From positions 1 through 27,221 of the IMG/VR virus record IMGVR_UViG_3300030095_005707: 27,221 bases of DNA. The stretch is one strand, 5' to 3'. Each line of letters starts with the position of its first letter. The stretch's first letter is position 1. The notes below the pieces were generated by a model, which did not search any database, was not told the origin of the DNA, and worked only from the letters and a program-made list of their open reading frames with translations. A program made the translations under genes and the position numbers. This DNA is from a virus. Its lineage: Duplodnaviria > Caudoviricetes. Below, in pieces: positions 897-13,935 of the stretch.

Positions 897-1631
897 TCAT
901 GCACTCTCGGTTTCTAGTTCCTCAGTGGCCTTCAGACCGTCTCTGTAGGCCTTGATATCCTTCTCCAGGATCGTGGTGTCCTTCCTGTCAAAAGTTTGCA
1001 GGGCGTCACTCCAGTACTGGGCCAGCCACTTATTCACCTCGTCCGAGGTCTTCAGCTTCTTCACCTGGTTCAAACAGTCCTGACGGTTATCCCAGGGCCC
1101 CCTCGACTCTTCTTTCGTCTCCGTCGATTCTGAGCGTCTTTCCCTGGCGTCCAGTTCCGGCGGGTCCACATCACTGGGGTCCAGCGGGTTGTCCTCTTTG
1201 GTGTAGATATCAAGACCTAATCCACACATAGCGATGGCCTTGACCAGGCATCTCTGAATGGTCTTATTTATGTCGAACATATCCGCCCCGTCTCCGTAAT
1301 AAGGGGCTGGCCGGATCGCCTTATTCCGGGAGTCCATGACGAACAGATCCGCAAACCGGACCGGCGTCTCTTCATCCTTCAGGTCCACACCGATCTCGAC
1401 CATGTATCCCTCCGGGCTGACCAGGTACGGTACGTTCGTGCCTTCCATCCATATAGGGCCGTCTGATTTAAATATAATTAGAGGCCAGTTCCGAAGGGTA
1501 TAGGTCGCTTTAGGATAATGCTTGAGAAGTTCATTCCAGGCATGGGTCCAGGGAAGATAATCCAGTTTTCCCTTCTTGGCGGTCAGGTGGCTGACGTCGA
1601 TGGATCTCAAAAATTCAAAACTACTTGGCAT
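897..1631 (-). CDS. Sak-type single-strand annealing protein (DUF1071, Rad52-like)
   Basis: F..L.SIDV...T.KKG.L.YL.W..AW..L.K.YP.A.Y N-terminus and DINKTIQRCLVKAIAM.GLGL.IY..ED motif; adjacent to an exonuclease. Confidence 0.88.
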   Translation of the reverse strand: MPSSFEFLRSIDVSHLTAKKGKLDYLPWTHAWNELLKHYPKATYTLRNWPLIIFKSDGPIWMEGTNVPYLVSPEGYMVEIGVDLKDEETPVRFADLFVMDSRNKAIRPAPYYGDGADMFDINKTIQRCLVKAIAMCGLGLDIYTKEDNPLDPSDVDPPELDARERRSESTETKEESRGPWDNRQDCLNQVKKLKTSDEVNKWLAQYWSDALQTFDRKDTTILEKDIKAYRDGLKATEELETESA

Positions 1632-1638
1632 AATTCAA

Positions 1639-1652
1639 TTCCGATTGAGGTT
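1639..1652 (-). promoter_or_regulatory. 14-nt motif AACCTCAATCGGAA upstream of the annealase (copy 2)
   Basis: Exact match to 2480-2493; ends 7 nt before the ATG. Confidence 0.55.
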
Positions 1653-2466
1653 AATTTAAAGCGTAGTCCGGCAACTCGACGGACTCGATGATGTTGCTGA
1701 ACCCGTAGACGGAGTCGGCGGGATCATAATCCTGGAGATCGACCAGGGCGTTCGTATATTGCGTCCGTCCGATATCCAGTTGTTTGGCCGGGATCGTATA
1801 GATTCCGACCTGATGAGGTGGGGTTTTGTGAACCATGACGTAGACGTAATCGACGTCGTCGCCATGATACTTCGCACAATCTATATAAAACGATGCCCGG
1901 CGGTGATATCCGCCATCGGCACACGCCCGGACAAACCCTTGACGGGTGGCATCCCTGGCGGTTTTCAGGTCCATCCAATACTTGCCGTTGACCCAGTCAG
2001 GCCGGGCCTTCAGTTTGTGGCCGTCCTTTTCCCAGAAATAGGAAACCTCTGGGGATCCGGACTTCATCATTAGCTGGACGAGGGGGTGAGCTAGGACTGA
2101 CTTCGCCATAGCCTGGGCGTGATCGAGTTGTTTCTGATCGATCATGATCAGGTTCTTCTCAAACGCCTTTTTTTTGAGGCCCTCAATTAAGGTTTTATTT
2201 TCCGGGTTTCTCTGATCCAGTTTAGGGATCAAAATATATTGCTTGCTGAAATGGTCCGGCTCGAGGACAAGGGTATGGGTCAGGGTCCCCAACTCCATGT
2301 CTGGAGTCGTTTTTTTGGGGTGATCTTTTCCATAGTAAAGTGCGTACACGCCACTTTTGTGGACCGTCTCACAATCCCCGGCCGAGGTGGCAGGGTCTGA
2401 GTGATATTCATTGGACGGCATCGTGGGCCGTACCATCTTTGATATTTGTGCTTCTTTTGTGATCAT
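1651..2466 (-). CDS. RecE/exonuclease VIII-like PD-(D/E)XK nuclease (DUF3799-like)
   Basis: EYH, M.LGT..H..VLEP, E.S.FW, K.RPD, DLKT and YH.RAS.Y motifs. Start placed at ATG 2466 (AAGG RBS) rather than 2508. Confidence 0.88.
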   Translation of the reverse strand: MITKEAQISKMVRPTMPSNEYHSDPATSAGDCETVHKSGVYALYYGKDHPKKTTPDMELGTLTHTLVLEPDHFSKQYILIPKLDQRNPENKTLIEGLKKKAFEKNLIMIDQKQLDHAQAMAKSVLAHPLVQLMMKSGSPEVSYFWEKDGHKLKARPDWVNGKYWMDLKTARDATRQGFVRACADGGYHRRASFYIDCAKYHGDDVDYVYVMVHKTPPHQVGIYTIPAKQLDIGRTQYTNALVDLQDYDPADSVYGFSNIIESVELPDYALN

Positions 2467-2479
2467 GTTACCTTTTAGT

Positions 2480-2529
2480 TTCCGATTGAGGTTGGGGACG
2501 GGGTACACTCCTTCTGGAGTCCCGCCCCC
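2480..2529 (-). promoter_or_regulatory. GC-rich hairpin followed by 14-nt motif (copy 1) upstream of the exonuclease
   Basis: Minus strand GGGGGCGGG-ACTCC-AGAA-GGAGT-(GTAC)-CCCGTCCCC, then AACCTCAATCGGAA. Confidence 0.55.
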
Positions 2530-2535
2530 GGTCTC

Positions 2536-2661
2536 TTAGGCCAGCTTCAGCATCCAGCCGAAACGGTTTTTCCAGTTCCCCAGAAAAATAGCCTGAGACT
2601 TTTGGTTTCGATTACGTCGGGACTCCTCGACGATTTGATTGATTCTAAAATGGGATTTCAT
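2536..2661 (-). CDS. Possible 41-aa basic peptide / leader ORF
   Basis: MKSHFRINQIVEESRRNRNQKSQAIFLGNWKNRFGWMLKLA fills the gap and overlaps the upstream gene's end; weak RBS. Confidence 0.35.
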   Translation of the reverse strand: MKSHFRINQIVEESRRNRNQKSQAIFLGNWKNRFGWMLKLA

Positions 2662-2887
2662 CCTTGACCGTGTTCTTTTCAGGTTTTGAAGATTGGGAAT
2701 CCATTTCCCGGGGCCTCATGATTTTAAAATCAGGATGCCTCTCCTCTTCTTTATAGTTGTTGACCAATGCGGTGTAATAGACACCTTCCTCCATGGGCTC
2801 ATCCAGTTTGATCGTGAGCTTGATGTCACCCGCCTGGGTCTCACCTTTCCAGATGGCCCCAATACTCGATTTTTTCTCTTCAGGCAT
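2645..2887 (-). CDS. DUF736-like small protein, probable ssDNA-binding protein
   Basis: IGAIW...G...L.I.LD.P and HPDF.I motifs; C-terminal DEIPF like bacterial SSB tails; lies in the recombination module. Confidence 0.7.
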   Translation of the reverse strand: MPEEKKSSIGAIWKGETQAGDIKLTIKLDEPMEEGVYYTALVNNYKEEERHPDFKIMRPREMDSQSSKPEKNTVKDEIPF

Positions 2888-3038
2888 TTTTCCTTTCTGC
2901 GATGATATCCATCACCGCTTGGTTGATTTTGCCGTTCAGTTTCGGGGAGAGAACCCGGCTGACGACGGTTGGATCGAGCCCCGCCCTCTTGGCGATCTCG
3001 ATCTGTGAAATGCGGTATTTCCGAATCAATTCAGTCAT
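2880..3038 (-). CDS. Cro/Cox-like HTH regulator (52 aa)
   Basis: ISQIEIAKRAGLDPTVVSRVL helix-turn-helix; first gene of the lytic operon, divergent from the repressor; ATG 3038 preferred. Confidence 0.8.
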   Translation of the reverse strand: MTELIRKYRISQIEIAKRAGLDPTVVSRVLSPKLNGKINQAVMDIIAERKNA

Positions 3039-3051
3039 TTGTGTTTTTTTG

Positions 3052-3137
3052 CTTGTCAAGTTTTCCAAACCTAATAACATAAATATTGTCAATTAATGTT
3101 GACAATATGATGCGTTGTTTGCTTAATGTCAACATTA
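3052..3137. promoter_or_regulatory. Lysis-lysogeny switch: overlapping antiparallel sigma70-like promoters and TTGWCAA operator-like boxes
   Basis: Plus TTGACA(3099-3104)-17-CTTAAT(3122-3127); minus TTGACA(3132-3127)-17-CATATT(3109-3104); inverted repeats ATATTGTCAA-N6-TTGACAATAT (3083-3108) and TAATGTTGACA/TGTCAACATTA; CTTGTCAAG at 3052-3060. Confidence 0.7.
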
Positions 3138-3212
3138 TTTTCCGGCCAAGATTTCCGCCGGGCTTATCAACCTCCCTAGAAGATGAATAGGGGTATTAAT
3201 ACGGAGATAGAT

Positions 3213-3308
3213 ATGTGCTTAAAAAACCAATGCTATGGTGCTGAATGGGACCGAAAATCAAACTTAGGATGGATGGGTAGAATCGATACTGGAGGGCCTA
3301 TTGAATGA
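3213..3308 (+). CDS. Possible 31-aa leader ORF
   Basis: GGAG RBS, MCLKNQCYGAEWDRKSNLGWMGRIDTGGPIE; stop overlaps the next ORF's start. Confidence 0.3.
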   Translation: MCLKNQCYGAEWDRKSNLGWMGRIDTGGPIE

Positions 3309-3501
3309 TAAAAAATCAGGCGGGTCTGTTTTTAGACATCCGCTGATGTTTGTTCCTCCACCGGAGGACGGGTTAAAAAAAGATCAGTCGAATATTGCAG
3401 GCGATGAGGGAACCGACTATAAACACTCAACTCACCAAATAACGATGATACCTACCCGTTATCTAGGCGTTTCGTTTTGCCTTAGAGAGGAGGTGTCATG
3501 A
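3301..3501 (+). CDS. Possible small hypothetical protein in the repressor leader
   Basis: TTG start with GGAGG RBS and ATGA overlap with the next ORF; the region also contains several hairpins. Confidence 0.3.
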   Translation: MNDKKSGGSVFRHPLMFVPPPEDGLKKDQSNIAGDEGTDYKHSTHQITMIPTRYLGVSFCLREEVS

Positions 3502-3776
3502 ATACATTTACTAATGAAATGGAATTGTTTTATGGCTTGATCAGGAAACAAGCCTGGATCGATTACCATCCACCACCATCGTTTAATTATGGAACGGAAA
3601 AAAGAAGACCCCGAGGTGTCGGCCCGCCTCCAAGAGGAGTGCCGTGCCCGGGGTTGGACCCAGAAAAACTTGCGGGAGGAACTGGATATCTCCAGGACCT
3701 TCGCCAGCCAGATATGGAATGGATCGGTCCCGTTAGGGCCGAAAACACTCCGCCGTCTGGCAGAACTTGGATTTGA
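3498..3776 (+). CDS. Strong-RBS ORF overlapping the repressor out of frame
   Basis: GAGGAGGT RBS; the first ~30 aa look protein-like, the remainder overlaps the repressor by 188 nt. Confidence 0.35.
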   Translation: MNTFTNEMELFYGLIRKQAWIDYHPPPSFNYGTEKRRPRGVGPPPRGVPCPGLDPEKLAGGTGYLQDLRQPDMEWIGPVRAENTPPSGRTWI

Positions 3777-3987
3777 TCTTAATTGGCTGATATCCGGTCA
3801 ACGGATGATGGGTGACTTCACCCAGAGTCAGATCAATGAGATTCAAGAGGAGTTGAAACAACTCCGATATTATAACAAACAACTGGAACGTCTTATTAAA
3901 GAAATAGGTAGGAATGACGACGACGATGTGCGAGAAACTAGACGAGGCCCAGAAGATTCTTCAGTTAATGCTGGAGAAAATAGATGA
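3589..3987 (+). CDS. XRE-family (cI-like) immunity repressor
   Basis: GWTQKNLREELDISRTFASQIWNG HTH, DLNWLISG motif, C-terminal coiled coil, no S24 peptidase domain; coupled to the integrase. Confidence 0.88.
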   Translation: MERKKEDPEVSARLQEECRARGWTQKNLREELDISRTFASQIWNGSVPLGPKTLRRLAELGFDLNWLISGQRMMGDFTQSQINEIQEELKQLRYYNKQLERLIKEIGRNDDDDVRETRRGPEDSSVNAGENR

Positions 3988-4153
3988 GATCGAGGAAACC
4001 CTTGTCGGTCAGGGACGGCCACTGGGTTTTCAGAGACTACACAACCAAACCGGCCAGGCTGATCCGCCTGTGCCGGACCGAGGAGGCCGACTGGAAGACG
4101 ACCTCAAAGGGAAAACGACGAAGAACGGATCCAGAAAGATCCCTTTTTCTTGA
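3914..4153 (+). CDS. Possible overlapping coiled-coil protein (third frame)
   Basis: AGGTAGGA RBS; heptad pattern in EKLDEAQKILQLMLEKIDEIEETL; overlaps both repressor and integrase. Confidence 0.3.
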   Translation: MTTTMCEKLDEAQKILQLMLEKIDEIEETLVGQGRPLGFQRLHNQTGQADPPVPDRGGRLEDDLKGKTTKNGSRKIPFS

Positions 4154-5093
4154 GAAACTAAAAGAGGGGAAAGTTCAGGAAATTCAGGCCCGGTCAAAGG
4201 TCGGAATCGAAGAGCTTTTCAAAGACTGGCTGGACCTCGCCCGGTCGGCGTTGTCTCCCAGGACGGTTACCTCTTATGAATCGACGGCCAGGTATTATTT
4301 AAAGGCCGTCAAGGATCATCCTGGGGATGAGTATGATGGACGTAAACAGAAGATTTTTGTGGACGCCCTGAAATCCCGGGGGTTGGCTGATCATTCAATC
4401 CAGGCCCATCTGAGACAGTTAAGTATCTGTTTTAAGCATGGGGAAACCGTCGGCCTGTTGGACAAGGCCCCGGCGGTCAAAAAGTTAGGCCTCGCAGATC
4501 GAGAGATCAAGGCGTTGTCTGACTCGGATCTGGATATGATCGGGCGACACTTAGAAAACCGGCTGAAGACAGGACCCGCCTTCAGGCAGAGGTTTTATCT
4601 TAACCACATCCGGGCCCACGTCTTGCTGACCTGGACCGGATTGAGAGCCGGTGAATTAGTACACCTCTTGATCAGAGATATTAACATAGAGGACCGAGTG
4701 ATTGCGATAGTACCGGACGGCCTGGATTGGGCCCCAAAAAACCGAAAGGTTGATCGGATTCCCATGTCACTCAAACTCCGTGAATTTCTGATAACTGATA
4801 TCAACGAACGTGAATCCCGGGAGAAGTATTTCCTGGACACTGGCAGAGGATCCCCGGCGTATCCTGAACGGGATCAACTGACCCAGGCATTTTCCAGGAT
4901 CCTCACCAGGGTCGGGATTAATGGGGTCAAACCGGTCCACGGTTATAGGGCCAGTCTTGCGACCAGGTTGATCAAGCGTGGAGTTGGTTTGGTGGAGGTA
5001 CAAAAAATATTGAGACATCGTCAGATCGACACGACTCGGCAATACGTCGATTCAATTCAACTCGATCTTCATCAGGCGGTCGATGCTCTGTAA
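3984..5093 (+). CDS. int: Tyrosine recombinase / phage integrase
   Basis: Catalytic set present: TGLRAGEL (R), PKN (K), HGYR (HxxR), LRH (H), TRQY (Y); SAM-like core-binding domain; tRNA fragment just downstream. Confidence 0.96.
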   Translation: MRSRKPLSVRDGHWVFRDYTTKPARLIRLCRTEEADWKTTSKGKRRRTDPERSLFLEKLKEGKVQEIQARSKVGIEELFKDWLDLARSALSPRTVTSYESTARYYLKAVKDHPGDEYDGRKQKIFVDALKSRGLADHSIQAHLRQLSICFKHGETVGLLDKAPAVKKLGLADREIKALSDSDLDMIGRHLENRLKTGPAFRQRFYLNHIRAHVLLTWTGLRAGELVHLLIRDINIEDRVIAIVPDGLDWAPKNRKVDRIPMSLKLREFLITDINERESREKYFLDTGRGSPAYPERDQLTQAFSRILTRVGINGVKPVHGYRASLATRLIKRGVGLVEVQKILRHRQIDTTRQYVDSIQLDLHQAVDAL

Positions 5094-5141
5094 TTCAATT
5101 ATGCTCAGACAAGGATCATTGGAAGGGGTATGTCGTTTAGA

Positions 5142-5205
5142 TGGTGCACCCGGGGCGATTCGAACGCCCGACCTTCTGAACCGCAATCAGATGCTCTATC
5201 CAGCT
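5142..5205 (-). other. attP core: 3' 64 nt of a tRNA-Arg(GCG) including CCA
   Basis: Minus strand AGCTGGATAGAGCA-TCTGA-TTGCGGT-TCAGA-AGGTC-GGGCG-TTCGAAT-CGCCC-CGGGTGC-ACCA; about 13 nt at the 5' end are missing; lies 48 bp after the integrase stop. Confidence 0.92.
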
Positions 5206-5210
5206 TACGT

Positions 5211-5278
5211 CCCTGATCCCTTCTCAGCCCTTCTGGAATCAAGGGTTTGACTTTAGCCGGGGAATCGCCTTTCCCCGG
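5211..5278. repeat. Short repeats beside attP (candidate arm-type or accessory-factor sites)
   Basis: CCCTTCT at 5218 and 5228 (10-bp period), inverted AAGGG at 5241, and CCGGGGAA-N6-TTCCCCGG at 5257-5278. Confidence 0.4.
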
Positions 5279-5351
5279 AAAACAACTAAATTAGTTAACC
5301 AATTATGCACGGACGAGGATGAAAAAAATACAAAAAATAGGCGGAGGTACG

Positions 5352-5558
5352 ATGTACAATTACCTCTCTGATGATGATTATGGTTGGTTTTATCGGAAGG
5401 GGACCAACCACGATATTGCTATCAGTCCTGCGACTCGTAAGCTGATAGAGCAAGGCCTCCAGGTAACAGTACGGGAAGTCCCTGATACGCAATCTTCCTC
5501 ACTTCCTCCGGAAGATTCTGGAACCCACGATCAGCAATCAACTGACGAAGCTTCATAA
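5352..5558 (+). CDS. Small convergent ORF (68 aa; alternative start 5319)
   Basis: GGAGGT RBS before ATG 5352; overlaps the 3' end of the 733-aa gene antisense by 137 nt. Confidence 0.5.
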   Translation: MYNYLSDDDYGWFYRKGTNHDIAISPATRKLIEQGLQVTVREVPDTQSSSLPPEDSGTHDQQSTDEAS

Positions 5559-7623
5559 TATCTTCCCGGATTGGGAGGTCATATTTTTTAGCAAACTCTC
5601 GATCAATTTTGTTTTGTTCGAGTAATGCACTTCTGAGCTTACCCTGGTCAAGCCTCTGGCCTATGTTTAATAGGCCTGGCTTTTCCAGTTCGCTGACTAG
5701 GTTTTTAGTCGCCGTTCCTGCCCCTTCTTCGGAAAACATTGTGGGTCTGTATCCACTTTCAAATCTTCCTGGAACATAATTAAAATTTCCTTCTTCCCCT
5801 TTCAGGACTTTTTTGACGATCTTCTGAATCTCAGTCCCGTCCAGGTCTCCATCAAATTTTCCAAACTGGATGGCATCTCCGACGTTGACGACGTCGAGGC
5901 CTTCATTGCTTAGATTCTGATTGATCTTGGAAAGGGTCGCCTCGTCAGCCTCAATCCTTCCACCGGTCTTTTCAAATCCCTTCATGGAAGAAGTCGCCGG
6001 TGTGAATTTGTGGTAACCTCCGGCCTCCTGGGCGTTCAGGATAGAACGAACCGTGGCGGTAAAGTCTAAAGCCTCCTTTGATGTTGGATCCATTTTAGGA
6101 CCGCCTCGTTTAGGTTCCCCTTTCTTAGTGAATCCCTCCAGTCTTGACGGAGTCAAACCCGTCAACGGCCTTGCTGTAAAACCTGGATTCTTTTCCAAGA
6201 GGCCAGCCGAGTTCATGTACTCCCCTTGGATCGGGATCACGTCGTCCTGGTACATCTGAAAACCTTCGTAATAAGGATCACGGTTTCCAATCGCCCCCTG
6301 CATCCTATTTGAATATTCCTTCCTGACACTTTCCGGAAGTTTGTTAAGCCCGGCTAGGTGACCGACACTTTCCCCGGTGATATATTCATAAGTTTCGTTG
6401 GCCTTTAGTCTAGGGATTGACTGATCAATCCCCCCCGAGGCCCTGGCGACCAGTTCATCAGCACTCGGCATTTTTGGGATAGATGGTCTTGAACCTTTTC
6501 CGCCATCCTTTTTTGAGGTCGAAGGTCTTGGATCGTTATCCCATTCCTTTTGCTTTTTTGTCGCATTGGTGACCCTCTCTCTAGCCTCGTCAACCAACTG
6601 GCGGAGTCTGACCGCCCCCCAGGTTGACGCTTGCATCCTTCGAGGTGTCATAGGTAGTGCAGTATCAAGAGCTTTTGTGGCCCTATCGGACGCTAGAAGG
6701 TTCTCTCCGGTAAGGAAACCATGTTCCTGGGGTGTAAACCCCCGGTCAAATTGAGACCCGCCCTGGCCGGAATAACCAAAAACACGCCCGTGCCAGATAT
6801 CGTTTGCGGTCTTGTAAAGCACGTCGTCGGAAATAGTCGGATCCTTTGCATCCGCATAGGGGCCTGTTTTTTCCCCGAGTTTAAGATCGTCGGGTCTAAA
6901 CTCGACCTGTCCGGTGGCCGGGTTGGTATCATAAATTTCATCAAGTTTGTCCGCCTGGGACTGAGTTCGGGGTCTGACCTTATCTCCTGAGATAACCCTT
7001 GCATTATGCTGGCGTATAAAATTTTCAACTTCCATCGGAGGCATCGCCTGGGGACTATAACTTGCCGTGCCCCTAGCAAATAGTTTCTGCTTGGTGGGAT
7101 CGCCAGGGGCTATTGTTTCAGCGACATCACGGGCCCGGTCGTACCAGTCATAATTAAACATCCCCTCTTCGACTTGCTTGTCCACTTCCTTTCTCATGGA
7201 GGAAAGGCCCTGGGGGGATGTTACGGATCGATAGTTTCCAGTTTCATCAAAAGGGGCCCCGATATATTTTCCGGTTTTGTCACGCTTTAAGTGATCGCCA
7301 CGTTGAGCAATTTTCATTGCCTCATCGTACTCATCAACCCCCTCAAATACTTTTGCGACGGACTTAGAAATGGGTCTTGATATTTTTTTCAATAGACCTT
7401 TTTTTGAAGGTCTGACTCCTCCAACTCCACTTCCACCAGCACCGGTCGGATTAATTTCCGCCCCGGCCGAAAGAGTCCCTGGGTTCAAGGGGTCCCCTAA
7501 CCAAGACATGAGCGTACCTGATAGCAAACCAGGCAAGTTCTTCACCGCATAGTCAGTGAAATCAAAAAGATTTCTATCGTATGCGTCAGCGTAATATTTT
7601 CTTTTAGATTGGGGATAACTCAT
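5422..7623 (-). CDS. Probable virion-packaged protein: shared leader plus HhH-GPD glycosylase-like domain
   Basis: Last late gene. Motifs WY(160)...SYSPQ...LGEKT(K252)...NDIWHGR(D275)...MQASTW; N-terminus homologous to the upstream gene. Confidence 0.65.
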   Translation of the reverse strand: MSYPQSKRKYYADAYDRNLFDFTDYAVKNLPGLLSGTLMSWLGDPLNPGTLSAGAEINPTGAGGSGVGGVRPSKKGLLKKISRPISKSVAKVFEGVDEYDEAMKIAQRGDHLKRDKTGKYIGAPFDETGNYRSVTSPQGLSSMRKEVDKQVEEGMFNYDWYDRARDVAETIAPGDPTKQKLFARGTASYSPQAMPPMEVENFIRQHNARVISGDKVRPRTQSQADKLDEIYDTNPATGQVEFRPDDLKLGEKTGPYADAKDPTISDDVLYKTANDIWHGRVFGYSGQGGSQFDRGFTPQEHGFLTGENLLASDRATKALDTALPMTPRRMQASTWGAVRLRQLVDEARERVTNATKKQKEWDNDPRPSTSKKDGGKGSRPSIPKMPSADELVARASGGIDQSIPRLKANETYEYITGESVGHLAGLNKLPESVRKEYSNRMQGAIGNRDPYYEGFQMYQDDVIPIQGEYMNSAGLLEKNPGFTARPLTGLTPSRLEGFTKKGEPKRGGPKMDPTSKEALDFTATVRSILNAQEAGGYHKFTPATSSMKGFEKTGGRIEADEATLSKINQNLSNEGLDVVNVGDAIQFGKFDGDLDGTEIQKIVKKVLKGEEGNFNYVPGRFESGYRPTMFSEEGAGTATKNLVSELEKPGLLNIGQRLDQGKLRSALLEQNKIDREFAKKYDLPIREDIMKLRQLIADRGFQNLPEEVRKIAYQGLPVLLPGGLALSAYESQD

Positions 7624-8567
7624 TTCAATAACCCTTTAAGTTGTTTAAAAGTAATCTTGTCGAATATCGGGTGGAGTTTTTTCCCGGCCTTGCCCTTAGT
7701 GTAGAACTCGCCAACCTGGTTCCCTAGCTCGATGTCGCCGGTCGTCATGGGCCTGAGTGTGGGCTCATTCCCGGCACGGACGTTCGCCATATCCTGGTAC
7801 ATCGTCACCGGGGAGTCGAACTGGGTCTCCAGCCCATAAACATGGCCCCGGTTTCCGTACCCTGGAAGATATAAATCACCTCCTTTTTTGACTTCTGCAC
7901 TGACTAAATAGTCCCCGGTCACGCCTCTCTCGAAAGTTTCGAGGGCGGAAGGGCGGTCGGTGTATTTTCTTAAAGGCCCGCCTCTCCCCGTCATTTTCCA
8001 GGGTTCGTTTTTATCGTAAATCGGAGAAAATTCTCTGAACAAATTAGTCACAAATTGTCGGGATCCTTTTGGGGTTTCATTGGGGTCAAAATCTTCCAGG
8101 AGTCCTGCGATTCTTAGGGCGGGCTTTTGTGGATTTGAGGCGTCAATATAACCGGATGAAAAAGTCTGACCCGAGATGTCTCTTGGCGGGCCGTCGCCCA
8201 TCATCAGGAACTGGCCCCCTAAAAGGCCCCCTTTGTATTTATCCTGGATCCTCGGGCTGAGACGTTTCCCTTTTTTGCTGAACCGTTCCGGGATCTCATC
8301 GGCTGGCACAATCTCAAAACTGGGATCCCCTTTGAGGGTGGACCGGAAGGGTTTAGGGAAGACGGATCGGATCTGGTCCTCCCGGAACTGGCGGAGGAGG
8401 TCTTCCTCACCGGCCATAGCCTCGGTCGGGTTCATAGGATCGCCCAGGAACGCCATACCGATGCCGGAAAGCATCCCCGGGATGGATCGCACTATCGGGT
8501 CGTAAAACTCACTGACGCCCTTGTCATAGCTTTTTGCGTACTGTTTTGCTTTAGACCTTGGGTACAT
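7620..8567 (-). CDS. Probable virion-packaged protein: shared leader plus domain of unknown function
   Basis: Follows the ejection genes; N-terminal 54 aa homologous to the 733-aa protein; C-terminal globular domain (TNLF...HVYGL...EPTLRP...HPIFDKI). Confidence 0.65.
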   Translation of the reverse strand: MYPRSKAKQYAKSYDKGVSEFYDPIVRSIPGMLSGIGMAFLGDPMNPTEAMAGEEDLLRQFREDQIRSVFPKPFRSTLKGDPSFEIVPADEIPERFSKKGKRLSPRIQDKYKGGLLGGQFLMMGDGPPRDISGQTFSSGYIDASNPQKPALRIAGLLEDFDPNETPKGSRQFVTNLFREFSPIYDKNEPWKMTGRGGPLRKYTDRPSALETFERGVTGDYLVSAEVKKGGDLYLPGYGNRGHVYGLETQFDSPVTMYQDMANVRAGNEPTLRPMTTGDIELGNQVGEFYTKGKAGKKLHPIFDKITFKQLKGLLK

Positions 8568-8568
8568 A

Positions 8569-10863
8569 TCAGTCCAATAAGCTCATGGGGTAGATGCCGG
8601 TCAGGGCCGACGGTAATCCGCCCTGGGTCAAGAGGCCTCTCTTCATTAGGGCCTGGTTCATCCGCCTGATCTCGTCCACCTCGTCGTAGGTCTTCAACTG
8701 GTTGACGGGGTTTGGATCAAAAAGACGTTTGCCTCCGGCCTCCGCCTCCTGGGTGAGTTTCTTCCGGGCCAAGTCTCCCATGCCCAGGTTCATCATCTCC
8801 CTCCTGACGGATCCGACCATGGACTGGGTATTGTCGGCCACATTCTGGAGGATGTTCCCTGCGAATCTCTGCTCGGTCTCCATTGGCGAGGTCTTAGACC
8901 CCTGGAAAAATTTGTTGTGGGTCGCCCCGGTGTCGGTCTCCAGTCGCATCTTGGCTATGAAGTCTGAGACGGTTGTCCCGTCTGGGAATAATCCCCCGAG
9001 AATCTTTTCAAACCGTTCCGTGATAAATCTTCCGGTATCCGGGATCGAGTAACCTTCCTGAGTCGCCCTTTTCCCCTCAATCTTATTAAGGAACCCGGAA
9101 ACCATGCCCAACTTAACCGCCTCCTTCTCGGCGTCCGACATCTGTCTAAACTCAAAAAGGACATCGTCTGCATTGGCGGAATCGGATTTCCCAAGGTCCT
9201 GGCCTCTGCGAAATGCACGGTCATAATCCATCTCGTCGTGCCAGAAGGAACGTGCCTCGGCATAGGGAGAGATCCCGGCGGGGTTGGTCGCCCGGAGTTG
9301 GCCGTCCACATCATCGAGGAGGGACTGACGAATCGAAGTCACCCGCCGGACTGCATCATCAGACATGGTGTTTGACCGTTGGCCCACTTGGCCTACGTTT
9401 TTTATTCCACGCTGGAGGTAGTCAAACTGCTGGACCGTCATCCGGCCCAATTCCAGGAGGTTGTCTGGTAGGACAAACCCGTCGTCGAGGGCGTCCTTTT
9501 TAGCCTGTTTAAATGCGGACTGCATGGTCGGCCTTTGGAAAAGATCAACCATATTGGGAGTGACATCGATGTACTGGGGGCCGACTGGGACTTGTTTCCC
9601 CATATCGTCGGTCACATACTTAGTGTAGGCCTGGTCATAGTAGGCCGGGGCCTTTTTTGACCTCTCGTTCTTTAACTGCTTTAAATATTCAAGCGGGCTG
9701 ACACGGATCCCCATGAGGTCCTGGATATAATTTCCGACCCTGGTCCCCATACCAGGTCCCTGAAAAAACTTGGGGGTCCCTGGGGGGTCTAGGGGGTTCC
9801 CTCGGCCCGTGATTCTCTGTTCCAATAATTGCTGGCCTTGCCCGGCGGTACTGGAGGGCGTCTGACTATAGCGTCCGCCAAGAGACCTAGTCTGAGGCCC
9901 TGTCATTAATTTGTCTGCCAGGATCATTGTGCCGTCCATCCCCAGTTCACCGGCCTTTTCTATTCTCTGACGTCCAAGATCAGTCGGGACCTGGTCTCTT
10001 TCCAGGCGGTCTGATATCTCTGAGAGGGCGGACCGTTCAGGCCCTGACTTGTCCCCTATGGACCCGGAAGGATCCCGTGGGTTCCCTTCTCCGCCTCCTG
10101 GGGAGAGTTTGCTTTTTACTCCCCTTGTAACCCTACTCCCGACACTTCCCAAAGCGTCACCAACCGGCCCAAGGACCGTGGACATGGCGGTCGGAATAGT
10201 TACTGAGGGGTCACTCATGATCGGGGGGAAAGTCGCATTTTTAACCTCCTCCTGGTCGAGGATCGGTTCCTCGTAAACACCCCGGTCTCTCAGTGCTTTT
10301 GTCGAGGCAATAGACGCCGGGTATGCGGTCAATGGCCCTGCAACAAATCCCGACCTGGCGATGTTCCGGATCGGCTGGCCTGATTTCAGTTGTAATGCTT
10401 TTGGAAGTAAACCGAGCCCGGATAGTATTTTGAGTTCTGTATATCCAGATATGAACCCGCCGGTGATGTTCGAGATGACGGCGGTGGCTGGGTTGTCTTC
10501 TGTAAACTGGCTCATCTCGCCCTGGATTCTCCCGAGGACTTCGTCGTAATCAGACCCCTCCATGCTTGACTCTATGGAGGCGACCATCTTGGGATACTGT
10601 TCGTAGGAAATCCCGGAAAAGACTTCCCGGATTACGCCCCTGACAAATTTTGAGACCTCGCCGTCATCCTTTCCCTGGGACTCTGCTTTCTGAATCTGCT
10701 TTCCGGCGGACTTAAGTTTCCGGTTCGTCCCTTTGACGATCTGACGGATACTTTTCAACCCGCCTTCAAAACCTTTCTTTTTCAGGCGTCCGGCTATCGC
10801 CTCGTCCGAGTGGCCTTTGGACTTCGCCAGGTTGTAATATTTATAGACGGTTGAATTATCCAT
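8569..10863 (-). CDS. DNA ejection / internal virion protein (P22 gp16-like position)
   Basis: Large helical protein with Gly-rich hydrophobic segments and A...Y..AY and Y.EAR..W motifs; third gene of the ejection cluster. Confidence 0.7.
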   Translation of the reverse strand: MDNSTVYKYYNLAKSKGHSDEAIAGRLKKKGFEGGLKSIRQIVKGTNRKLKSAGKQIQKAESQGKDDGEVSKFVRGVIREVFSGISYEQYPKMVASIESSMEGSDYDEVLGRIQGEMSQFTEDNPATAVISNITGGFISGYTELKILSGLGLLPKALQLKSGQPIRNIARSGFVAGPLTAYPASIASTKALRDRGVYEEPILDQEEVKNATFPPIMSDPSVTIPTAMSTVLGPVGDALGSVGSRVTRGVKSKLSPGGGEGNPRDPSGSIGDKSGPERSALSEISDRLERDQVPTDLGRQRIEKAGELGMDGTMILADKLMTGPQTRSLGGRYSQTPSSTAGQGQQLLEQRITGRGNPLDPPGTPKFFQGPGMGTRVGNYIQDLMGIRVSPLEYLKQLKNERSKKAPAYYDQAYTKYVTDDMGKQVPVGPQYIDVTPNMVDLFQRPTMQSAFKQAKKDALDDGFVLPDNLLELGRMTVQQFDYLQRGIKNVGQVGQRSNTMSDDAVRRVTSIRQSLLDDVDGQLRATNPAGISPYAEARSFWHDEMDYDRAFRRGQDLGKSDSANADDVLFEFRQMSDAEKEAVKLGMVSGFLNKIEGKRATQEGYSIPDTGRFITERFEKILGGLFPDGTTVSDFIAKMRLETDTGATHNKFFQGSKTSPMETEQRFAGNILQNVADNTQSMVGSVRREMMNLGMGDLARKKLTQEAEAGGKRLFDPNPVNQLKTYDEVDEIRRMNQALMKRGLLTQGGLPSALTGIYPMSLLD

Positions 10864-12950
10864 TAATCAAATATCGATTCGAGTTCTTGGTCGTCTTCAA
10901 TATTCCCAGGAGGCGACTCCGAGGTAACGGCGGACCTGATCTTTTCCACTATTTTTTCCCCGGCCGAGGCCTGGGGTGACTCTTTTTTTACGCCCCCAGT
11001 TGAGGAAGGCTTGACCGTGTTATCTAGGTGACTTTCTAAGGCCTTAAAATCAATTCTGGCTTTGGCCTTGTCCAATCCTTGGACCTTAGCAAATGGGTCG
11101 TATATCGCCTCATCTCTGACGCCAAAATATTTTGCTGACTCTTGGAAATTTTCTTTGACTGGATTAAACCTCTCCCTTATTGCACTCATGTAAGCACGGG
11201 CGGATTCAACAAACTTGGCTCGGGCTTCGTCAGTAAGAAGTTCTCCCTTCCTTAATTTGTTTGGCATCACCAGTAATTTATCTAGGAGGCCCTGAGTGTT
11301 CTGGGCATTCGCAAATTCTGTCTCCCTAACTACTGATGTCGGGTCTAACATCTTCTGAAAGGCCTGGATCAGCATCAGATCGCCTTGTCCGTTCTTTTGT
11401 GATGCCCCAGTCAGCATTGCCTGGTAGGCGTTGACGGCCCCTAGGTAGTCTTTAGCTTGAGACGAGTATTCTTTCCTTAGTGCTTGCTCTGTTTTAAACT
11501 CATCCAGCTTTGTCATCGGCTTGTCACCTTTTGACATAACTTCGACAGTGTACTTACCTCCGGTCTTCAGGAGGAAATCTTCGTCTCCCATTCTTCCAGC
11601 AAATGCCTTCTCAGTGGCGTTACCTTCCAAGGCCTGGGCCTTAGTCATGTAGGTTGGTTGTTCTTTGACTGGCTTATCCTTAGTCCAGTCCGGCTTAAAG
11701 GCGTTGGTCGGTTTCCCTTTATCGTTGTAAGCGATCTGGAAAATATCGCCGTCGTCGAGCTTTAACGCACTGGCGAGGGCCGGTTCCCTTTTCTTGAGTT
11801 CCGCCCCAGACATAAAGAGGGGGGTTTCCGTTTCCGGTTCTACAGTCTCGAGAGGCTCAGTCACTGGCGTGTAGTATTGGTCGAGGTACGAAACCGTGCC
11901 GTCCCCTTTAAGGGTCTTAAACTTAACCCTGGGATCCCCCAGGGCGTTCATTTCATCTATCTCAAGCGGGACGGTTGTCTCTTGGAAGGGTTCCTCTTTT
12001 TGTTTTGGAGGCTTGCCTAGCATCCCTCCTGACCGGAAAACCCGTTGATTGGTCGGGCTTATCTCAACCTCATCGGCCCACTCGGGGGCATTCTCCGGGT
12101 AATCAGGGGCCCCTTTTTTGATGTACTTGTACCCTTTTTCGACCTTCTCCTCCTTTGGAGGATCCAGGGCCTTGGTGACAACCTGGTTGTACCGGTTCAG
12201 GTACTCAAAGTCACCGTCCTCGGTCGTCCTTTTCCGGACGACACGGGGATCTTTTAAGGTCATCCGTTCGTCCTCTTCCAGGTCAAAATATTCAGTTTGG
12301 AATTTTTCTTCCTCTTTTTGATCAGGCTCGGGAAAACTTGTAACTTGTTGACCGAATTTATCGTAGAATTTTCGGATCCCGCCTTCGGTCTTACCGGTAG
12401 TTACATTCTCCGGAAGGCCGATCATTTGTCTCATTTCACTATCGACGACAAACGTCTGGTCGGTTTTTTCTTTTTCAGGACCTTTGATTTCCTCACCGAG
12501 ATAACCGTCCTCCCTATAGCGAAATTGACGTTTTGAATTTGGATCAGTGTAAATAAGTTGTTCGCCGGTCAGTTCAGGCCGTGGATCCTTCTGGGCCTTG
12601 ACCATCGCATTGTTTAAGTTGGCGACGACGACGGAAGGCTTGACAGAGGCCAGCATCTCGGCACTCCTGAGAAGGGCCTCATCGACCCCCATGGTCCGGG
12701 CCTGGGCGATCAGATCCGGGATCCGTTCTTCCAGTTCACCTTTCAACGCCCGTTCCTCTCGGAGGGCGTCCATTTTCTCCTCCATGGTCAGGGCCTGGTT
12801 AAAGGTCTGGAGGCCTTGCTGGAGTCCCTTGCCGAGGGCCTGGGTCCCGCCACCAGGAAACCTGGACGGGGCGTTATTCGCTAAAATCCCGGCCCCTAAA
12901 CCGAGTAGGCCTTGATAGAATGCTCGTTGTCTTGGGTCCATCTCTGCCAT
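10863..12950 (-). CDS. DNA ejection protein (P22 gp20-like position) with internal repeats
   Basis: N-terminal GLLGLGAGILA segment; C-terminal GD..LI..F.KMLDP.SVVRE.EFA motif seen in podoviral ejection proteins; charged repeated middle. Confidence 0.7.
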   Translation of the reverse strand: MAEMDPRQRAFYQGLLGLGAGILANNAPSRFPGGGTQALGKGLQQGLQTFNQALTMEEKMDALREERALKGELEERIPDLIAQARTMGVDEALLRSAEMLASVKPSVVVANLNNAMVKAQKDPRPELTGEQLIYTDPNSKRQFRYREDGYLGEEIKGPEKEKTDQTFVVDSEMRQMIGLPENVTTGKTEGGIRKFYDKFGQQVTSFPEPDQKEEEKFQTEYFDLEEDERMTLKDPRVVRKRTTEDGDFEYLNRYNQVVTKALDPPKEEKVEKGYKYIKKGAPDYPENAPEWADEVEISPTNQRVFRSGGMLGKPPKQKEEPFQETTVPLEIDEMNALGDPRVKFKTLKGDGTVSYLDQYYTPVTEPLETVEPETETPLFMSGAELKKREPALASALKLDDGDIFQIAYNDKGKPTNAFKPDWTKDKPVKEQPTYMTKAQALEGNATEKAFAGRMGDEDFLLKTGGKYTVEVMSKGDKPMTKLDEFKTEQALRKEYSSQAKDYLGAVNAYQAMLTGASQKNGQGDLMLIQAFQKMLDPTSVVRETEFANAQNTQGLLDKLLVMPNKLRKGELLTDEARAKFVESARAYMSAIRERFNPVKENFQESAKYFGVRDEAIYDPFAKVQGLDKAKARIDFKALESHLDNTVKPSSTGGVKKESPQASAGEKIVEKIRSAVTSESPPGNIEDDQELESIFD

Positions 12951-12957
12951 GGTGTCC

Positions 12958-13935
12958 TTAGTTAAAAAATCCTCCGGATCCGAGTCCGCCCACTACACCG
13001 GCCCCTAACCCGAGGAGATCGGCGAGGTCGTCTTTGAACATTGTCTGGTTTGTGGTCCCGGTCGAGGTCTTGCCATAAGGACCGCCGAGAAGGCCCTGGA
13101 CGGCCCCCAATCTCATCATCGGGTCGCCTTGTTCTCTCATAAACTCCTGGTACGCAAAGTCCAGGTCTTGCTGGTTCTGACCTTGTTGTTGTCCCCCGAT
13201 TGCCATTAGGTCCCGGGTGTCACCTCTCCGGGCGTTTCGGTATCGGTCCATGATCTGAGAAACATTTCCGGCCCCTGAAAGGTTTCTGTCGGCGGTCGAG
13301 AGGTCGAGCCCGGCTTGCTTAAAGCCATACTGGTCCCCTCGGCCTATATCCCTTTCCATCAGACCCTGGGCCTGGCCGAATCCCTGGTTCAGGAGGTTCG
13401 CCTGGAGGGCCCCAATATTCTGAGCCCCTAACGCCCTGGCGGTCCCCCGTTCAAGGGCCTCCGCCTCATTCATCCCTCCTGGGGAGGTCTGGACGGCGTT
13501 TGCACTGATCTGGTTCAGGTTCCTTTGGAGTTCATCCTGGGCCCCCTGGACGGCGGGGTTGATCACGTTCTGGGTGTACGGGTTCATGTACTGGCTGGGG
13601 TCCCCCATATTGAGGAATGACTGGTACTGGAGTTCTGGGGATCCCATACTGGCGACCCTCTGGGAGGCGTCAACGGCCCCCTGGTAGGACCCGGATCCGA
13701 AATTCTGGCCCCGCCTCACGTTCGCCATGGCCTGGTTCTGGTCCATGTTGAAATTTGCGAACCTCTGGAGTGGGTTATTTGCATCATCGGTGTAACCCTG
13801 GAAATCCTGGCTCAGGATATTATCCCGGCCGTAATCAAATAACTCATTCCGGAACTGTTTCATATCCGGATCAATAGCCGAGGTCTGGGTCTGGGTTGTG
13901 GGGTTGTTTATTTTTCTTTCAAATAATCCAAACAT
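12958..13935 (-). CDS. DNA ejection/pilot protein (P22 gp7-like position)
   Basis: Q/G/N-rich, QYMNPY..NVI motif, Gly-rich hydrophobic C-terminus. Confidence 0.72.
   Translation of the reverse strand: MFGLFERKINNPTTQTQTSAIDPDMKQFRNELFDYGRDNILSQDFQGYTDDANNPLQRFANFNMDQNQAMANVRRGQNFGSGSYQGAVDASQRVASMGSPELQYQSFLNMGDPSQYMNPYTQNVINPAVQGAQDELQRNLNQISANAVQTSPGGMNEAEALERGTARALGAQNIGALQANLLNQGFGQAQGLMERDIGRGDQYGFKQAGLDLSTADRNLSGAGNVSQIMDRYRNARRGDTRDLMAIGGQQQGQNQQDLDFAYQEFMREQGDPMMRLGAVQGLLGGPYGKTSTGTTNQTMFKDDLADLLGLGAGVVGGLGSGGFFN

Follow-up and report, generated by a model that had tools for sequence, protein, structure and literature searches.

The window analysed here, a stretch of 27,221 bases that makes up the whole of an IMG/VR-type virus record (IMGVR_UViG_3300030095_005707; an estimated ~70% complete, 50% G+C), carries at the end of its late genes two adjacent genes whose products, proteins of 315 and 733 amino acids (aa), share an N-terminal leader of about 55 residues (leader A) and continue into unrelated C-terminal parts, which we call cargoes. 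Comparison with related loci shows, at the level of sequence, that this leader is portable and that its cargoes are interchangeable, as an initial annotation of the window had supposed. We propose, with our confidence evenly divided, that the common 55-residue leader, shuffled among at least three cargo types, is a docking tag by which cargo would be loaded into the phage head and later ejected along with the DNA. The two genes and their parts, all on the minus strand, are as follows.

7620-8567, minus strand: gene of the 315-aa protein
8403..8567, minus strand: leader A subtype 1, residues 1-55 of the 315-aa protein; basic/aromatic N-terminal stretch, Gly-rich hydrophobic stretch, GDPMNP
7620..8402, minus strand: cargo of the 315-aa protein, residues 56-315 plus stop; beta-rich, with a C-terminal part (~240-307) that recurs in large multidomain phage proteins
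5422-7623, minus strand: gene of the 733-aa protein
7456..7623, minus strand: leader A subtype 2, residues 1-56 of the 733-aa protein
7339..7455, minus strand: linker, residues 57-95 of the 733-aa protein, Gly-rich then basic; accompanies leader subtype 2 onto PBECR5 cargo in loci L070 and L077
5473..7338, minus strand: core of ~620-640 aa, residues 96-717 of the 733-aa protein; compact, confident model with many invariant or near-invariant polar residues
5422..5472, minus strand: C-terminal tail, residues 718-733 of the 733-aa protein plus stop, hydrophobic then acidic; a tail type kept across the core family

Two unrelated cargoes share an N-terminal leader

Translation placed the two leader peptides quoted in the initial annotation at 8403-8567 and 7456-7623 of the minus strand, and BLASTP of the full proteins returned a single significant alignment between them, joining residues 2-55 of the 315-aa protein without gaps to residues 3-56 of the 733-aa protein (27/54 identical, 39/54 positive, expectation value (E) 4e-14). 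Beyond the leader the similarity stops, as had been stated: the next best alignment between the two proteins had an E of 4.3, and a profile-profile comparison of the 315-type and core families gave E 0.11 (probability 0.5%). These comparisons tested for homology through the full lengths, as expected of simple paralogues, and found similarity confined to the leader. The two window cargoes are unrelated by sequence and profile, and their AlphaFold models differ in kind, the core being helical with an alpha/beta part and the cargo of the 315-aa protein being beta-rich.

At the DNA level, the two window leaders are identical at 84 of 162 nucleotides (52%). The same residue is encoded at 27 of the 54 aligned codons, by an identical codon in 10 of those 27 and by a different codon in 17, and the pair has a saturated pS of 0.855 and a pN of 0.374. 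Across six leaders on three cargo types, 24 positions are invariant. We read the similarity of the leaders as old and kept at the level of the peptide, representing neither a recent duplication nor a DNA repeat. Because synonymous sites are saturated while residues stay conserved, selection acts on the leader peptide.

In the AlphaFold models, the predicted local distance difference test score (pLDDT) is below 50 in residues 1-78 of the 733-aa protein and in residues 1-5 and 13-44 of the 315-aa protein, and both low-confidence leaders precede confident compact folds (predicted template modelling score (pTM) 0.86 for the 733-aa and 0.72 for the 315-aa protein). The basic/aromatic stretch is drawn as a helix (residues 6-29) at low confidence and is followed by a Gly-rich hydrophobic run of 13-14 residues. 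Kyte-Doolittle maxima over 19 residues were 1.2 and 0.64, which we take to be below the level expected of a membrane-spanning helix. A membrane-spanning leader was rejected on this low hydropathy, with no transmembrane predictor behind the rejection.

Leaders and cargoes are exchanged among related loci

Our comparison set consisted of 20 related metagenomic loci. Leader scans gave 4 viral loci from 89 pattern matches and 16 metagenome loci from 253, and a scan of 185,579 reference genomes gave no locus. A profile made of leader rows and the 315-type family, searched against 1.84 billion representatives, returned 68 proteins at E<=0.001, most of which match the 315-type cargo; the match of P0172, to profile positions 36-85, was weak and ambiguous. 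Diverse cargoes in such a profile search had been named as support for the leader idea; the spread of leader A proved narrow, with 2 further leader-bearing proteins, both with a PBECR5 cargo. Leader A is confined to one small phage clade, yet it stands on three cargo classes.

The third of these is a PBECR5 nuclease-type domain (PF18814, cut-off 25 bits), so that leader A is not limited to the two domains of the window. P0125 (511 aa) consists of leader A and a Gly-rich/basic linker followed by this domain (E 1.9e-17, 64.4 bits), and PBECR5 is also found in P0131 (560 aa; E 3e-21, 76.7 bits) and P0132 (509 aa; E 3e-18, 67.2 bits). PBECR5 occurs as a leader-A cargo in relatives only, the window itself having none.

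When leaders and cargoes were tabulated for 32 leader-bearing proteins, 7 of the 12 possible combinations of three leaders with four cargoes were observed. The leaders are A (55 aa, two subtypes), B (~95 aa) and C (~140 aa), and the cargo types are the 315-type domain, the 640-aa core of the 733-aa protein, the PBECR5 nuclease-domain protein and a 477-aa cargo. Leader A is found on the 315-type domain, the 640-aa core and PBECR5, whereas leaders B and C are each found on the core (85-91% identical) and on the 477-aa cargo; P0010, for example, carries leader C on a 733-type core at 85% identity. Two otherwise similar phages carry the same core but differ in the leader before it, which is A in L004 and B in L009. 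The PBECR5 cargo occurs at 94-100% identity behind either subtype of leader A, and the window 733-aa protein is 79% identical to the PBECR5 protein of L070 (1536-3074) over residues 1-98 and unrelated to it beyond. The leader DNA of L002 is recombinant, with subtype 1 for ~108 alignment columns and subtype 2 after, and therefore recombination has occurred inside the leader as well as behind it.

Homology of leaders A and B was examined by hhalign and is unsupported (E 0.18). By alignment eye only, the N-terminus of a 752-aa core homologue (L010:5486-7744) looks mosaic-like, with the first helix of leader A and then a leader-B-like remainder.

The leader genes occupy a hypervariable cassette slot

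The slot after the last large ejection-type gene, which encodes a 764-aa protein in the window, is a hypervariable cassette. It is bordered by the 764-aa homologue in 9 contigs and by the integrase in 10 contigs, and its presence or absence varies between near-identical phages. The contents of the slot, each gene given by its leader and its cargo or length, are as follows.

Window: A-315, A-733
L001 and L068: A-315, B-477
L002 and L078: A-PBECR5, B-480
L070: A-302, A-PBECR5, 464 aa
L071: 78-aa open reading frame (ORF), A-302, B-495
L077: A-PBECR5, C-662 (bearing the 477-type cargo)
L004, L075 and L076: small basic ORFs or gap, A-733
L009: gap, B-744 (733-type core at 91%)

The initial annotation had predicted that such genes would always lie at the end of the ejection cluster, and this does not hold. 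In L073 and L072, a full portal gene (phrog_1216, E 6e-118) ends on the base at which a leader-A gene of 311 aa begins. Downstream of the latter come the gene of a 445-aa DUF7178 protein (30.4 bits in L072, passing the DUF7178 cut-off), two small ORFs and then the scaffold and capsid genes. This portal-adjacent slot contradicts a fixed place at the end of the cluster and fits a head-internal protein. In L079-L081, only the first 33 leader positions were found, in a 170-aa basic protein (E 1.8e-9). In the 45.5-kb contig of L080, the gene of this half-leader protein (5995-6507) is flanked by an endolysin-like gene and by the large terminase gene, with the latter downstream.

Four small, very basic ORFs (59-88 aa; Lys/Arg/Gly-rich) replace the 315-type gene at L004:9106-9998, and comparable slots are found in the gaps at L009:8857-9770 and L071:943-1416. 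The small basic ORFs of these slots may encode small internal DNA-associated proteins. The within-locus screen also recovered, as its positive control, a pair of adjacent tail-fibre genes in L053 (6054-7190 and 7190-7882); their products are 62% identical over the first 39 residues and differ from there on, which marks an ordinary N-terminal fibre anchor.

The core of the 733-aa protein defines a large family

Among 8000 scored candidates, 118 relatives of the 733-aa protein were found at E<=0.001, most of which cover only ~86% of the protein and differ in their N-termini. The region before the core ranges from ~60 to ~530 residues across 117 sequences, and leader A is present only in P0004 and P0008. 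The AlphaFold model (117-row alignment; pLDDT 88, pTM 0.86) has a compact helical and alpha/beta body between residues 78 and 718, with a pLDDT below 50 for residues 718-733.

Pfam and PHROG gave no family for the 733-aa protein apart from a sub-threshold match to DUF7178 (PF23802; 16.4 bits against a gathering cut-off of 27), and sub-threshold matches to this family were seen in 2 of 52 core-family members. The nearest Atlas clusters of the protein are likewise DUF7178 (cosine 0.92), and the core is possibly a distant relative of this family. The best VIA-wide match of the model (Z 6.8) lies on a small ferredoxin-like subdomain, and a sequence search of solved structures with the core profile had a best E of 0.14. 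In a viral structure library (BFVD), the model matched uncultured-phage proteins; the neighbours include a 'large polyvalent protein associated domain' protein (E 2e-12) and one named RelA/SpoT.

The core family has a C-terminal element of its own (window 5425-5520; 100 relatives), made up of a basic helix, G-L-P, a hydrophobic run of 10-15 residues and an acidic end. It is disordered in AlphaFold and is a second candidate signal, specific to the core family. The idea that all cargoes and the 764-aa protein have this tail in common was rejected, as a hidden Markov model (HMM) built from 100 core-family tails matched core-family members only among 797 ORFs.

Other candidate relationships were tried and set aside. 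Homology of the 477-aa cargo with the 640-aa core is unsupported (hhalign E 0.41), and the commonest N-terminal region of core homologues, considered as pre-toxin (PT-TG)-like, had no Pfam match at E<=1. A G-hydrophobic-L-[N/D] motif is present in 15 of 110 N-terminal regions (shuffle mean 3.7, maximum 10); its carriers belong to related lineages, and we make no claim for it. In the distant relative L053, a 726-aa core gene (64-2244) is followed directly by two ORFs, an acidic one of 326 aa and another of 346 aa. If these are the scaffold and capsid genes, as read from position, size and composition, this core gene would lie in the head module and not behind the ejection genes.

The cargo of the 315-aa protein has fewer kin: the protein has 4 close relatives, no Pfam family at E<=5 and no PHROG family. 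Its AlphaFold model (34 rows; pLDDT 80, pTM 0.72) has a beta-rich body. One relative, P0127, contains an insertion of ~110 aa (residues ~150-265) at the loop that matches window residues ~158-165. An impression of an 'FHGT' motif suggested an ART-like identity for this insertion, which was rejected as Pfam gave no match at E<=5 and phmmer gave none among 195 stored proteins.

Both cargo families have polyvalent relatives

Homologues of the core are fused to LPD23 (P0104, P0124), ART-PolyVal (P0105) and Zeta_toxin (P0116), and the C-terminal part (~240-307) of the 315-type cargo is found again in proteins as long as 3548 aa. Matches to ART-PolyVal, LPD23 or DUF7178, some of them sub-threshold, were obtained for 7 of the 15 scanned 315-type cargo hits. 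In L055:1325-4372 (a 1015-aa ORF) and L056:5-2740 (911 aa), a 315-type domain (i-E 3e-8) and then a 733-type core (27% identity, E 9e-28) are fused in one frame. The window cargoes are therefore partners that are fused elsewhere, and represent the split form of a polyvalent protein.

The window proteins themselves had no Pfam match above cut-off, polyvalent-domain fusions being found in homologues only; each has one cargo module, and fused forms with at least two domains are found only in relatives. PBECR, ART and related domains are known from phage proteins encoded among virion genes, for which packaging and injection were predicted (Iyer et al. 2017, PMC5512222, as excerpted), and the window leader genes are also encoded among virion genes. 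Judged by these homologies, the cargo families appear to belong among polyvalent-type proteins, the injected-effector kind.

The leader genes close the late region of a temperate podovirus-type phage

The modules of the record and the genes that border the cassette are arranged as follows.

Late genes, all minus strand, part 1: portal fragment, scaffold, major capsid protein, small head/virion proteins, tail fibres
Late genes, all minus strand, part 2: M15 endolysin, 624-aa virion protein, 86-aa ORF, 325-aa protein
Late genes, all minus strand, part 3: 695-aa and 764-aa proteins (PHROGs of unknown function), then the 315-aa and 733-aa genes
12958..13935, minus strand: 325-aa Gly/Gln-rich protein; phrog_4287 'DNA ejection protein', E 2e-12
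10863..12950, minus strand: 695-aa internal/ejection-type protein; phrog_13634, unknown function
8569..10863, minus strand: 764-aa internal/ejection-type protein; phrog_5880, unknown function; upstream border of the cassette in 9 contigs
7620..7623, minus strand: ATGA overlap of the 315-aa stop codon and the 733-aa start codon; translational coupling
3984..5093, plus strand: tyrosine integrase; downstream border of the cassette in 10 contigs

The order in which the 325-, 695- and 764-aa genes are followed by the 315- and 733-aa genes is as initially annotated. The accompanying label of three ejection genes stands in part, as only the 325-aa protein matches an ejection family; for the other two it rests partly on position and size, because the 695- and 764-aa proteins match only PHROGs of unknown function. 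By eye, a Gly-rich hydrophobic 'LLGLGAG' run at the 325-aa C-terminus (12958-13020) and the 695-aa N-terminus (12860-12950) resembles the hydrophobic part of leader A in style.

A gap of 1 nucleotide separates the stop of the 764-aa gene from the start of the 315-aa gene, and a promoter and terminator scan of 5000-8700 did not exceed shuffled sequence in the number of sites. The cargo genes are not followed by a small immunity-type ORF, the next gene being another cargo gene or the integrase region. Among the scanned head-module proteins of this ~70% complete record, there was no protease family.

On the other side lies a lysogeny/recombination module (897-5093) with a Sak annealing protein, a PDDEXK exonuclease, a repressor-like helix-turn-helix protein and the tyrosine integrase, and the phage is therefore temperate; no tRNA adjoins the integrase (ARAGORN). 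Against 176 deposited phage records, the window capsid protein reached no more than 36% identity. From the names of records among these, we take them to include podoviruses of Pseudomonas, Pelagibacter, Rhizobium and Ochrobactrum, morphology being absent from the listing. We conclude that the source is an uncultured temperate phage of the short-tailed, podovirus type.

A proposed docking-tag role for leader A

Under the docking-tag proposal, the flexible leader would bind a conserved component inside the virion (scaffold, portal or ejection-protein complex) while the procapsid is being assembled, and the cargoes would then be encapsidated without a prohead-protease step. They would exit via the tail together with the ejection proteins and, once in the cell, would target the nucleic acids or defences of the host, a role that has been proposed for polyvalent proteins. 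Recombination within the leaders and immediately behind them would renew the cassette, which would be an effector island. A role in loading and injection is suggested by circumstantial features, namely the late-operon context, the portal-adjacent position in one lineage, the polyvalent kinship and the flexibility of the leader. It is also suggested by analogy with the capsid-targeting sequence (CTS) of T4 and with P1 DarB. A complex prediction of leader A (alignment A1) with the 309-aa scaffold scored 0.08 against a mark of 0.32 and weighs neither way.

Several points tell against this proposal. A location of the 315- and 733-aa proteins in the virion is only presumed. Leader A is narrowly distributed, P0131 and P0132 being the only further clear leader-only matches in the profile search. 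One receptor for all leaders would be expected to impose a common motif, and none was statistically supported. The extreme N-terminal diversity of the 117-member core family could equally mean targeting after entry. No activity is indicated by structure for either cargo, as Foldseek found nothing in PDB at E<=0.001 for the 733-aa model and no match for the 315-aa model, whose best VIA-wide Z was 2.4. No match to the 315-, 733- or 764-aa protein came up in tblastn against 50,697 phage records, so there is no cultured relative among them; reference bacterial and archaeal genomes yielded neither the leader nor a relative of the core. Finally, no prohead protease gene is seen in the head module of this incomplete record, so the system probably does not work exactly as that of T4 does.

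Relation to known loading and effector systems

The T4 capsid-targeting peptide is common to several different packaged proteins. In this it resembles leader A, which is found on two proteins in the window and on three cargo classes in relatives. Unlike the phage described here, T4 is a myovirus whose prohead protease removes the CTS, whereas here a scaffold gene but no protease gene is seen in the head module; moreover, the window-type leader is at least 55 aa long, and exists in at least three types that are not shown to be homologous and are combinatorially exchanged. A short N-terminal peptide sends T4 non-structural proteins (IPIII and others) into the head for injection with the DNA (PMC9024508, as excerpted; see also PMC7697877).

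The N-terminal 30 residues of P1 DarB suffice to send a reporter into capsids, and a common N-terminal signal sought among P1 Dar proteins yielded no recognisable consensus according to the same excerpt (PMC9024508). DarB is similar to the proteins studied here in that an N-terminal signal loads a large anti-restriction protein of polyvalent type, loading being presumed in our case. Unlike the Dar proteins, which lack a consensus N-terminus, the window leader is plainly recognisable across cargoes (E 4e-14).

MuF toxins of temperate phages combine a conserved virion-associated N-terminal module with variable C-terminal toxin domains, and their gene adjoins the portal gene (PMC5576092, as excerpted). 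They share with the leader proteins a constant N-terminus and variable C-termini, and the leader-A gene of L073 lies in the MuF slot. In contrast to MuF genes, the window genes follow ejection-type genes, and are portal-adjacent only in the L072/L073 lineage; the leader proteins have no MuF domain (Pfam), their constant part being a short flexible leader instead of a domain of ~300 aa, and two or three cargo genes stand in tandem, with no small immunity ORF after them.

With polyvalent proteins there are common domains (PBECR5, ART-PolyVal, LPD23 and Zeta toxin among relatives), a virion-gene context and predicted packaging and injection, but polyvalent proteins have many domains per polypeptide, whereas the window has separate genes, each with its own leader copy. 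Tail-fibre N-terminal anchors also have a conserved docking N-terminus behind which C-termini are exchanged by recombination, as in the L053 pair. These anchors belong to external receptor-binding proteins, however, and the window cargo has no fibre features. We found no description of a shared leader on podophage internal proteins in open-access papers and bioRxiv.

Alternative explanations for the shared leader

The two proteins could instead be accessory structural parts of the ejection apparatus, with the leader as an interface that plugs periplasm- or envelope-acting modules into a complex of the 764- and 695-aa proteins, an arrangement that would resemble T7-type ejection proteins with the peptidoglycan hydrolase domain exchanged among them. 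Ejection proteins are documented to swap domains (PMC8954989, as excerpted), the window genes directly follow, and are coupled to, large ejection-type genes, and Gly-rich hydrophobic ends are also present on the 325-aa C-terminus and the 695-aa N-terminus. We nevertheless judge this explanation unlikely. The PBECR5 cargo is of RNase type, and it and the ART, Zeta-toxin and RelA/SpoT-type partners in relatives represent activities with cytoplasmic targets; the cassette comes and goes between near-identical phages, which is unexpected of an essential channel part; and neither cargo has similarity to lysozyme or transglycosylase.

It is also possible, though the chance seems slim, that the leader acts after entry or in the producing cell, as an amphipathic helix and Gly-zipper hydrophobic stretch that brings the cargo to the inner membrane or a host partner, and that any entry of the cargo into the virion depends on other means. 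The low-confidence basic/aromatic helix followed by a Gly-rich hydrophobic run would suit such a role, and the conserved hydrophobic/acidic C-terminal tail of the core family could be the incorporation signal instead. The hydropathy maxima speak against a spanning helix, however, and the tail HMM finds no tail on the other cargoes or the 764-aa protein; the 315-aa protein has no such tail, the leader being its only element common to others.

That the shared N-terminus is a functionless recombination remnant or handle, produced by gene conversion between neighbours, is highly improbable: the leader of L002 is recombinant and cassettes are exchanged at or just behind the leader, but the window leaders have kept 27 of 54 residues despite 52% DNA identity and saturated synonymous sites, and the 24 positions invariant in six leaders on three cargo types point to purifying selection on the peptide, not to recent conversion.

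Returning to the docking-tag proposal, its wider form is that a clade of uncultured temperate podophages carries an effector island of two or three genes, in which the non-homologous leaders A, B and C would be interchangeable address labels for the capsid loading, and possibly the ejection order or route, of rotating injected enzymes, including a confidently folded 640-aa core without a PDB fold match. We hold this wider form somewhat tentatively.

Implications for short-tailed phages

How internal or ejected proteins are recruited into the procapsid of short-tailed phages is poorly understood. Natural shuffling marks the boundaries of the leader, at ~55 aa or at ~98 aa with the linker, and so provides a testable candidate signal and a bait for finding its partner. 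The cassette also shows that effector domains of the polyvalent kind can be spread over separate genes, every one with a leader of its own, which implies selection for independent loading or dosage. Two abundant, confidently folded families, the 640-aa core and the 315-type domain, are added to the likely injected phage proteins. If the address-label reading is true, these leaders would constitute the first recognisable sequence-defined protein-loading code for short-tailed phages, and would offer a ready-made handle for packaging foreign proteins into phage particles.

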